The position numbers and the translations under genes are program-made. A stretch of 64,000 nt of DNA from Octopus vulgaris (taxonomy: Eukaryota). The notes beneath the pieces were generated by a model. That model ran no database searches. It saw only the letters and a list, made by a program, of their open reading frames with translations, and was not told the DNA's origin. The stretch spans positions 121,334,001 through 121,398,000 of the forward strand of contig OX597816.1 of NCBI GenBank assembly GCA_951406725.2. Reading direction: 5' to 3'. This document shows positions 49,225 to 49,874 of this stretch, piece by piece (positions within the stretch are counted from its first letter, which is position 1; the number at the start of each line of letters is the position of its first letter).

Positions 49225-49874
49225 ATATTATTTATTTAAAGGGCACAATGCATGTATAAATAGTTTCATATGTTGAGAAAACTCAAACATATTCTTCAGG
49301 CGCAAACCACATATCATAACGGACTAAAAAAAATTGAATAAGAGAAGAAGCGCGGAAAAACTGAGACGGCAGCATATAGAAAAGGCAGAAAATAAACAAC
49401 GAAAAACATAAAACGAAAACACAAAAACAAAAATGTAAAAAACAAAAAGTAAAAAGGTAAAGGAGCTATCCTTCTTAGATCTTAAATGGTAAGGCTAGAA
49501 AGATATCAAGTCAGGAATATTCCAATTCTTCAAAATATATTTATACATATACATGCAACTACTGAAAATCTCTAACCTAGAGTTCAATTGGGAGTTTGTG
49601 ATTTTAGATCTGAACAAGTCTGCGCTCTTTCAGCCAAACGAAGCCTACATATATTCGATCCATTCACATTCCATTTTCAGTTGTTTACTTTCTGCGTTTT
49701 CTATATGATGCCTTCTTAGTTTTTATTTTTTTACGTTTCTTCTATTATTCAAATTTTTTTTTTTTTAGTTCGATATATGTGGTTTGCGCCTGAAGAATAT
49801 GTCTAAGTTTTCTCAACATATGAAACTATTAGTAGCGCTTTAATACATGTATTGTGCCCTCAGATAAATAATAT
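49225..49874. mobile_element. Foldback element: ~180-bp inverted arms, ~270-bp spacer, probably Penelope pLTR-derived
   Basis: 49225-49405 is a diverged reverse complement of 49673-49874. The left arm has the hammerhead core on the minus strand but lacks the cleavage-site segment. Confidence 0.7.
49786..49838 (+). ncRNA. Minimal type I hammerhead ribozyme motif
   Basis: GCGC-CTGAAGA-ATATGT..ACATAT-GAAA-CTATTAG-TA-GCGC: 4-bp stem I, 6-bp stem II, short stem III, GUA triplet. Confidence 0.75.

Follow-up and report, generated by a model that had tools for sequence, protein, structure and literature searches.

A head-to-head inverted insertion of a Hydra-clade Penelope-like retrotransposon very probably accounts for a hammerhead-bearing foldback in Octopus vulgaris

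Penelope-like elements (PLEs) frequently leave complex insertions, in which an adjacent inverted, 5'-truncated copy is found at the 5' end of the element and a tail of 30–40 bp at one end. At the C-terminus of the endonuclease, a CxxC and a CxH motif flanking the conserved E and N are specific to the Hydra clade (Craig et al. 2021, PMC8557442). Head-to-head is described as the most frequent inverted form of PLEs and self-priming has been proposed for it (PMC3846280). The tail has been tied to two start sites of the reverse transcriptase (Frangieh et al. 2024, PMC11167929), and the PLE hammerhead is reported to be protein-assisted and dispensable for insertion in vitro (PMC11167929). Minimal PLE hammerheads have a palindromic helix III and show weak, dimer-dependent cleavage; the G10.1-C11.1 pair is called highly conserved (Cervera and De la Pena 2014, PMC4209133). 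PLEs are already known from the literature for inverted, 5'-truncated copies in head-to-head arrangement, for tails at one end, for insertion into (TA)n and for minimal hammerheads (PMC8557442, PMC4209133, PMC3846280). Literature searches on hammerhead ribozymes in octopus and on Penelope or the Hydra clade in cephalopods returned nothing on the particular family described below; Repbase and Dfam were outside the scope of these searches.

We analyzed a stretch of 64,000 nucleotides of Octopus vulgaris DNA (the window), in which an initial annotation had noted a foldback at 49225..49874 carrying a hammerhead ribozyme. With a probability of roughly 0.92 we interpret this locus as an inactive Penelope-like retrotransposon insertion of the Hydra clade, in which a 5'-truncated minus-strand copy abuts, head to head, an inverted copy of lesser length beside a (TA)7 tract (Table 1). 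We favor this reading because the sequence belongs to a multi-copy family, in other copies the centre and the left arm are contiguous, a tail is present at one end, and endonuclease-like motifs are located about 200 nt upstream of the hammerhead. The traits by which we place the element among the PLEs are its 5' truncation with a head-to-head inverted copy, the tail at one end and a sense-strand hammerhead near the 3' end.

Table 1. Features of the insertion and of its left flank (window positions).
Feature	Position	Strand	Basis
Flanking SINE-like repeat, not part of the element; its microsatellite tail received the insertion	49050..49151	+	12 blastn matches
Target microsatellite (TA)7, with (TG)n setting in again on the right-hand side of the element at ~49875	49152..49165	.	
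Main copy, 5'-truncated	~49678 to 49166	-	family contigs
3' tail of the main copy, at one end only	49166..49221	-	45–55 X1 contigs and depth
3' untranslated (pseudo-LTR-like) part of the main copy	49222..49497	-	contigs X1#1, X2#18
Left arm	49222-49405	-	blastn arm match
Hammerhead broken by a deletion of 11 nt at 49258/49259, with core, stem II, GAAA and the 5' strand of stem I still present	49259..49303	-	
Frameshifted remnant, most likely of the C-terminus of a Hydra-clade PLE GIY-YIG endonuclease	49498..49678	-	motifs, majority letters, Fig. S7 of PMC8557442
CxxC-E half; LN-CxH half; stop	49649; 49587; 49497	-	
Head-to-head junction of main and inverted copy (approximate position), probably with a short T-run shared by both	49670..49678	.	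contig departures and arm start
Right arm: tailless short copy in inverted orientation, 5'-truncated	49674..49874	+	blastn, contigs
Type I minimal hammerhead, palindromic stem III	49786..49838	+	descriptor scans, shuffles, comparison with File S2 of PMC8557442

When the foldback was compared with the window by blastn, we obtained one inverted match, 49222-49405 against 49674-49877, with 77.4% identity over 208 columns (E 9e-42). The inverted arms of the initial annotation are thus real, whereas its left border was set too far inwards, the element reaching to about 49166. Between the arms, 53 of 56 aligned bases (95%) agree in the hammerhead part and 74 of 90 (82%) in the inner part. No head-to-tail repeat was found by blastn; the sole repeat of element sequence in the window is the inverted one.

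To describe the family we used contigs from four (X1, X2, X4 and X13) of 24 listed public runs, aligned on 49165-49935 at 80% likeness; X1 may come from the source of the window itself, and X13 is a run under another species label. The listings covered 40 difference rows (of 151), 15 joints (of 214), 24 loose ends (of 1,120) and 32 pieces (of 7,962), and summed contig depth was not taken as copy number. Altogether 2,202 (X1), 2,427 (X2), 417 (X4) and 2,435 (X13) contigs were aligned, mostly 80–95% alike, and 198, 356, 72 and 119 contigs, respectively, overran the ends, partly via the neighboring SINE. The element therefore belongs to a multi-copy family, which is common to several species labels and is apparently a Hydra-clade PLE distinct from Hydra-1_Obim. 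The divergence seen in this family is compatible with the expansion of PLEs and LINEs at a Jukes-Cantor distance of 0.2 in the Octopus vulgaris annotation (PMC13282606).

The contigs also show that the centre of the foldback is more than a neutral loop between two arms. X1#1, which differs from the window at 53 letters, spans 49259-49610 without interruption, and X2#18 spans 49259-49513. Because diverged contigs unite the centre and the left arm in one piece, the centre has to be regarded as part of the left, minus-strand copy. Among the loose ends listed, 15 (X1), 16 (X2) and 2 (X4) contigs depart from the window behind 49669 with a common continuation; it follows that 5' truncation ended the main copy at this point and that the right arm constitutes a second copy, shorter and in inverted orientation. 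Judged by eye, the continuation rejoins the window after 24 letters, and we infer a junction at about 49674-49678. The junction-crossing pieces among those listed are near-identical to the locus and specific to it (X1#6 with 3 other letters, X2#22 with 2). Joints to the opposite strand were mostly discarded as evidence for inversion, since most of them link homologous positions of the two arms; two off-axis joints, 49464/49726 and 49318/49716, were present among those listed. An X4 contig identical to the locus (49338-49526) was likewise not used as evidence for expression, as X4 is only guessed to be RNA. In a further group, at least 15–19 contigs per DNA run (5 in X4) share the stretch encoding the endonuclease end (49514-49669) and diverge jointly left of 49514, which suggests a subfamily whose ORF end and 3' UTR are not the same.

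At the left end, 45–55 X1 contigs share differences at 49211-49222 and extend about 45 letters further to the left. Summed depth is 3,445–5,112 at this left tail versus 84 at 49867-49892, beyond the right arm. The tail of about 55 nt is located at the left end only and is missing from the right arm. A one-sided tail is an optional feature of PLEs, but the present one exceeds the published length of 30–40 bp, which counts against the PLE reading.

These observations bear on the possibility that the foldback is a non-autonomous, MITE- or retrozyme-like hammerhead element that transposes as a whole inverted unit. Such an element would agree with the presence of two foldbacks with outward-reading hammerheads within 5 kb and with the higher likeness of the arms in their hammerhead part, and non-autonomous PLE derivatives do exist (bioRxiv 10.64898/2026.07.22.740005). 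The non-LTR retrozymes described in the same preprint also share a type I hammerhead and a proposed PLE origin with our locus. As described there, however, they are arranged in head-to-tail tandem and contain no coding remnants, whereas the arrangement here is inverted and includes an endonuclease remnant. Since in addition the family contigs continue past 49669 without folding back, the listed junction-crossing pieces are locus-specific, and the unit is asymmetric with a tail at one end and coding sequence in its centre, we consider transposition as a whole unit very unlikely.

The coding remnant consists of two minus-strand frames, which are separated by a frameshift near 49617 and read like the end of a PLE endonuclease; the frameshift is marked, among the rows listed, by letters that other copies have inserted at 49616-49618. 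Motif patterns were drawn from Fig. S7 of PMC8557442 after the translation of the window had been seen, and the shuffle test is partly post hoc. On the minus strand C.L...E[KR] matches at 49649, in order and 62 nt before a match at 49587 to LN[KS][RK].E....C, the latter being the single match of this pattern in the six frames of the 64 kb. No other such motif pair was found within the window. In 150 shuffles neither the second pattern nor an ordered pair occurred; the first half alone was found 1.3 times per shuffle. This copy reads CxxR and CxY, with Arg at the second Cys and Tyr at the His. Among the rows listed, the majority letter of the family at 49640 yields Cys (40, 30, 3 and 40 contigs in X1, X2, X4 and X13) and that at 49551 yields His (80, 66, 4 and 71 contigs), a result which is independent of the choice of patterns.

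Database searches with the 44-aa frame did not retrieve a PLE: the word-index protein search gave three candidates, none of them scored, the Pfam search gave 0 families, and no match above 0.79 was found in the ESM Atlas. A phmmer scan returned three repetitive, unrelated proteins (P0001-P0003), which we rejected as tandem-repeat proteins with scores summed from weak stretches. The assignment to PLEs is thus a likely one based on motifs. These searches count against the PLE reading, as does the fact that neither a reverse transcriptase nor a full-length family copy was obtained. EN+ PLEs carry a telomerase-like reverse transcriptase together with a GIY-YIG endonuclease in a single ORF; the truncation of the main copy has removed the reverse transcriptase as well as the GIY-YIG core, and the region in which the Hydra clade has RWK, DKT and CxCX5C motifs but no CCHH is outside the window. 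By eye, LNSR, CxLCxAER and the K[FY]xLxNW end of the remnant resemble Hydra-1_Obim, the nearest named element, but differences in stems I and III, in loop II and in the 3' UTR indicate a different family. The distance from the stop of the remnant frame to the hammerhead core on the same strand is 198 nt, compared to about 130 nt, counted by eye, in Hydra-1_Obim.

In the plus-strand hammerhead, stem I is formed by GCGC (49786-89/49835-38, 4 bp), the core CUGAAGA is located at 49790-96 and GAA at 49822-24. Stem II comprises 6 bp and stem III 3 bp with a loop of 3 nt. GUA is present with A17 at 49834, and cleavage is predicted after A49834. All positions of the type I core (C3-A9, G12-A14, A15.1-U16.1, H17) and three helices are in place. 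This was the sole match of both the strict and the relaxed scan on the two strands of the 64 kb; in 100 local shuffles the strict scan found 0 matches and the relaxed scan a mean of 0.01. The initial annotation was therefore right in placing a minimal hammerhead in this arm, and also in its statement that the ribozyme sense strands are directed outwards, the plus copy lying in the right arm and the minus copy in the left. It had further called the plus copy intact, which applies to the core letters only: on its own, the 53-mer is no more stably folded than shuffled sequences (z -0.35), the hammerhead fold accounts for about 0.6% of the predicted monomer ensemble, and an Rfam scan of the window gave 0 matches at gathering scores.

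Weak folding, the missing Rfam match and an A-U pair in place of G10.1-C11.1 would be expected if the motif had arisen by chance in an ordinary inverted repeat. Given the shuffle result of the strict scan and the agreement in position, strand and architecture with the Hydra-clade hammerheads in the literature, G10.1-C11.1 being absent from many of these as well (PMC8557442), the probability of a chance match is practically negligible. The stem III and cleavage base of Penelope-1_HM (acta-t-tagt-a) are identical to those found here, and the start of stem II matches Hydra-1_oBim (PMC8557442). Like the minimal PLE hammerheads of PMC4209133, the plus copy is of type I with a 4-bp helix I, a long helix II and a palindromic helix III; it differs from them in the absent G10.1-C11.1 pair and in that 3 bp of helix III are possible within the monomer. 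Taken together, the CxxC-E/LN-CxH motifs, a sense-strand type I hammerhead soon after the ORF end, the palindromic stem III and the (TA)n target resemble the Hydra clade. An 11-base hammerhead word had 0 matches in the supplement of PMC8557442, and the hammerhead pattern of the family was found at 0 loci each in metagenome and viral contigs. Stem I variants GUGC and GCAC in the loose-end consensuses look compensatory, but were not accepted as covariation because they stem from different contigs and could reflect CpG decay.

The minus copy retains CUGAAGA (49299-49293), stem II and GAAA (49267-49264). It had been reported as broken by a short deletion of the GUA/stem I segment, and indeed 11 nt are absent that comprised GUA together with the 3' strands of stems I and III. 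The segment is present in other copies, as seen from an insertion row at 49257 (X4) among the rows listed, and 22 X13 and 3 X4 contigs have loose ends before 49259 among those listed; the deletion is not the state of the family. The two cores are about 490 bp apart, comparable to the dual minimal hammerheads of Schistosoma, which are located on opposite strands at a distance of about 100–700 bp (PMC4209133).

A second hammerhead foldback was observed at 54539-54897, with the same geometry and arms that are 98% identical. Its minus copy is intact with a 6-bp stem I, a palindromic stem III and an unusually long loop II of about 50 nt, its plus copy is truncated at stem I, and the hammerhead is Hydra-like. 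The two foldbacks gave no blastn match to each other and a best local alignment of 21 columns, confirming that the families are unrelated in sequence. Endonuclease motifs had no match in the 54.5-kb element, and the minus-strand frames upstream hold only faint Cys/His words; it is probably another PLE 3' end. From the two foldbacks a recurring class of hammerhead elements had been proposed. The layout does recur, but it is the published head-to-head form of PLEs rather than a distinct class. Hammerhead foldbacks in this genome can be explained as ordinary PLE insertion scars, which is mostly of value for annotation. Many such junctions in a genome would provide material on whether head-to-head inversion proceeds by self-priming or template switching, a question that one decayed locus does not settle.

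Among described insertions, the Hydra-clade element Penelope-13_HM has the same layout as our locus: an inverted, 5'-truncated copy adjoins its 5' end, and both strands contain a hammerhead (PMC8557442). Penelope insertions of Adineta vaga also show a head-to-head inverted copy that is shorter than the direct one and a tail at one end (PMC3846280), although they belong to a different clade. An alternative to a single event is that the family inserted twice independently, the later copy coming to lie head to head on the earlier one. This would account for the difference of about 18% between the arms in their inner part, which is more than might be expected of initially identical copies and counts against the preferred reading; moreover, AT-rich DNA, the element's own pLTR among it, can be cleaved by the PLE endonuclease (PMC11167929). 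Head-to-head is nevertheless the commonest published form (PMC3846280), and the 54.5-kb element repeats the geometry with nearly identical arms. Both arms here also share the GCGC stem I strand and a C at the position matching 49857, where most of the family depth has A, which weakly supports one template. We therefore judge two separate insertions to be extremely unlikely.

For the preferred single insertion, published PLE biology suggests that the endonuclease of the element would have nicked the (TA)n tract and that reverse transcription would have started from the tail-bearing 3' end and stopped early inside the endonuclease region. A template switch or self-priming may then have added the inverted copy from a shorter 3' end in the same event. 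Later decay would have introduced the frameshift, the 11-nt deletion and substitutions. In contrast to Hydra-1_Obim, about 510 nt are left of the element, in frameshifted form.

The hammerhead is likely the ordinary 3' ribozyme of the family, for which weak cleavage, mainly as a dimer via the palindromic stem III, would be predicted. Pairing of this stem with a second copy (8 bp, predicted -4.9 kcal/mol) would fit the dimer model, yet the partner at this locus is on the other strand and broken. In the predicted fold of a read-through RNA there are 177 long-range pairs, and 42 of the 53 hammerhead bases are paired to the left arm. Because this predicted hairpin of about 177 bp would mask the ribozyme, activity at the locus appears unlikely unless transcription starts inside the element. 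It is improbable that the inverted PLE remnants now act as a mobile or transcribed unit, either by being copied as a whole foldback or through a read-through duplex of about 177 bp that would inactivate the ribozyme and serve as substrate for A-to-I editing or small-RNA silencing.

Regarding the insertion site, 12 blastn matches, self included, reach the 3' end of the flanking SINE-like repeat. By eye, 8 of the 11 other copies in the window run into a TA-rich tract and 3 run straight into TG-type sequence. Insertion into (TA)n, a trait of the Hydra clade, is found here as (TA)7 within the microsatellite tail of a dispersed repeat. No target-site duplication was readable inside the microsatellite and no junction palindrome was recognized at the locus, in which it differs from the Adineta vaga insertions as described (PMC3846280). 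Directly to the right of the foldback, 49928-50401 contains three tandem copies of a SINE-like repeat with a spacing of 184 and 173 nt.

Elsewhere in the window, perfect or near-perfect foldbacks without a hammerhead core are located at 16595-16907, 11735-11854, 29742-30194 and 33705-34010, probably MITEs or inverted SINE pairs; CUGANGA was absent from five other foldbacks of the window. An ORF end with C2H2-type zinc fingers and an adjoining microsatellite (53621-54054, plus strand) presumably represents the 3' end of a LINE ORF. A Mariner/Tc1 transposase fragment is located at 15897-16388 on the plus strand (PF01359, E 8e-09). Finally, about 12 kb downstream of the foldback, 61628-62077 (plus strand) holds an exon of a YAP/Yorkie-like gene, which encodes the TEAD-interacting region (PF15238, E 1e-07) and in which a WW domain begins.
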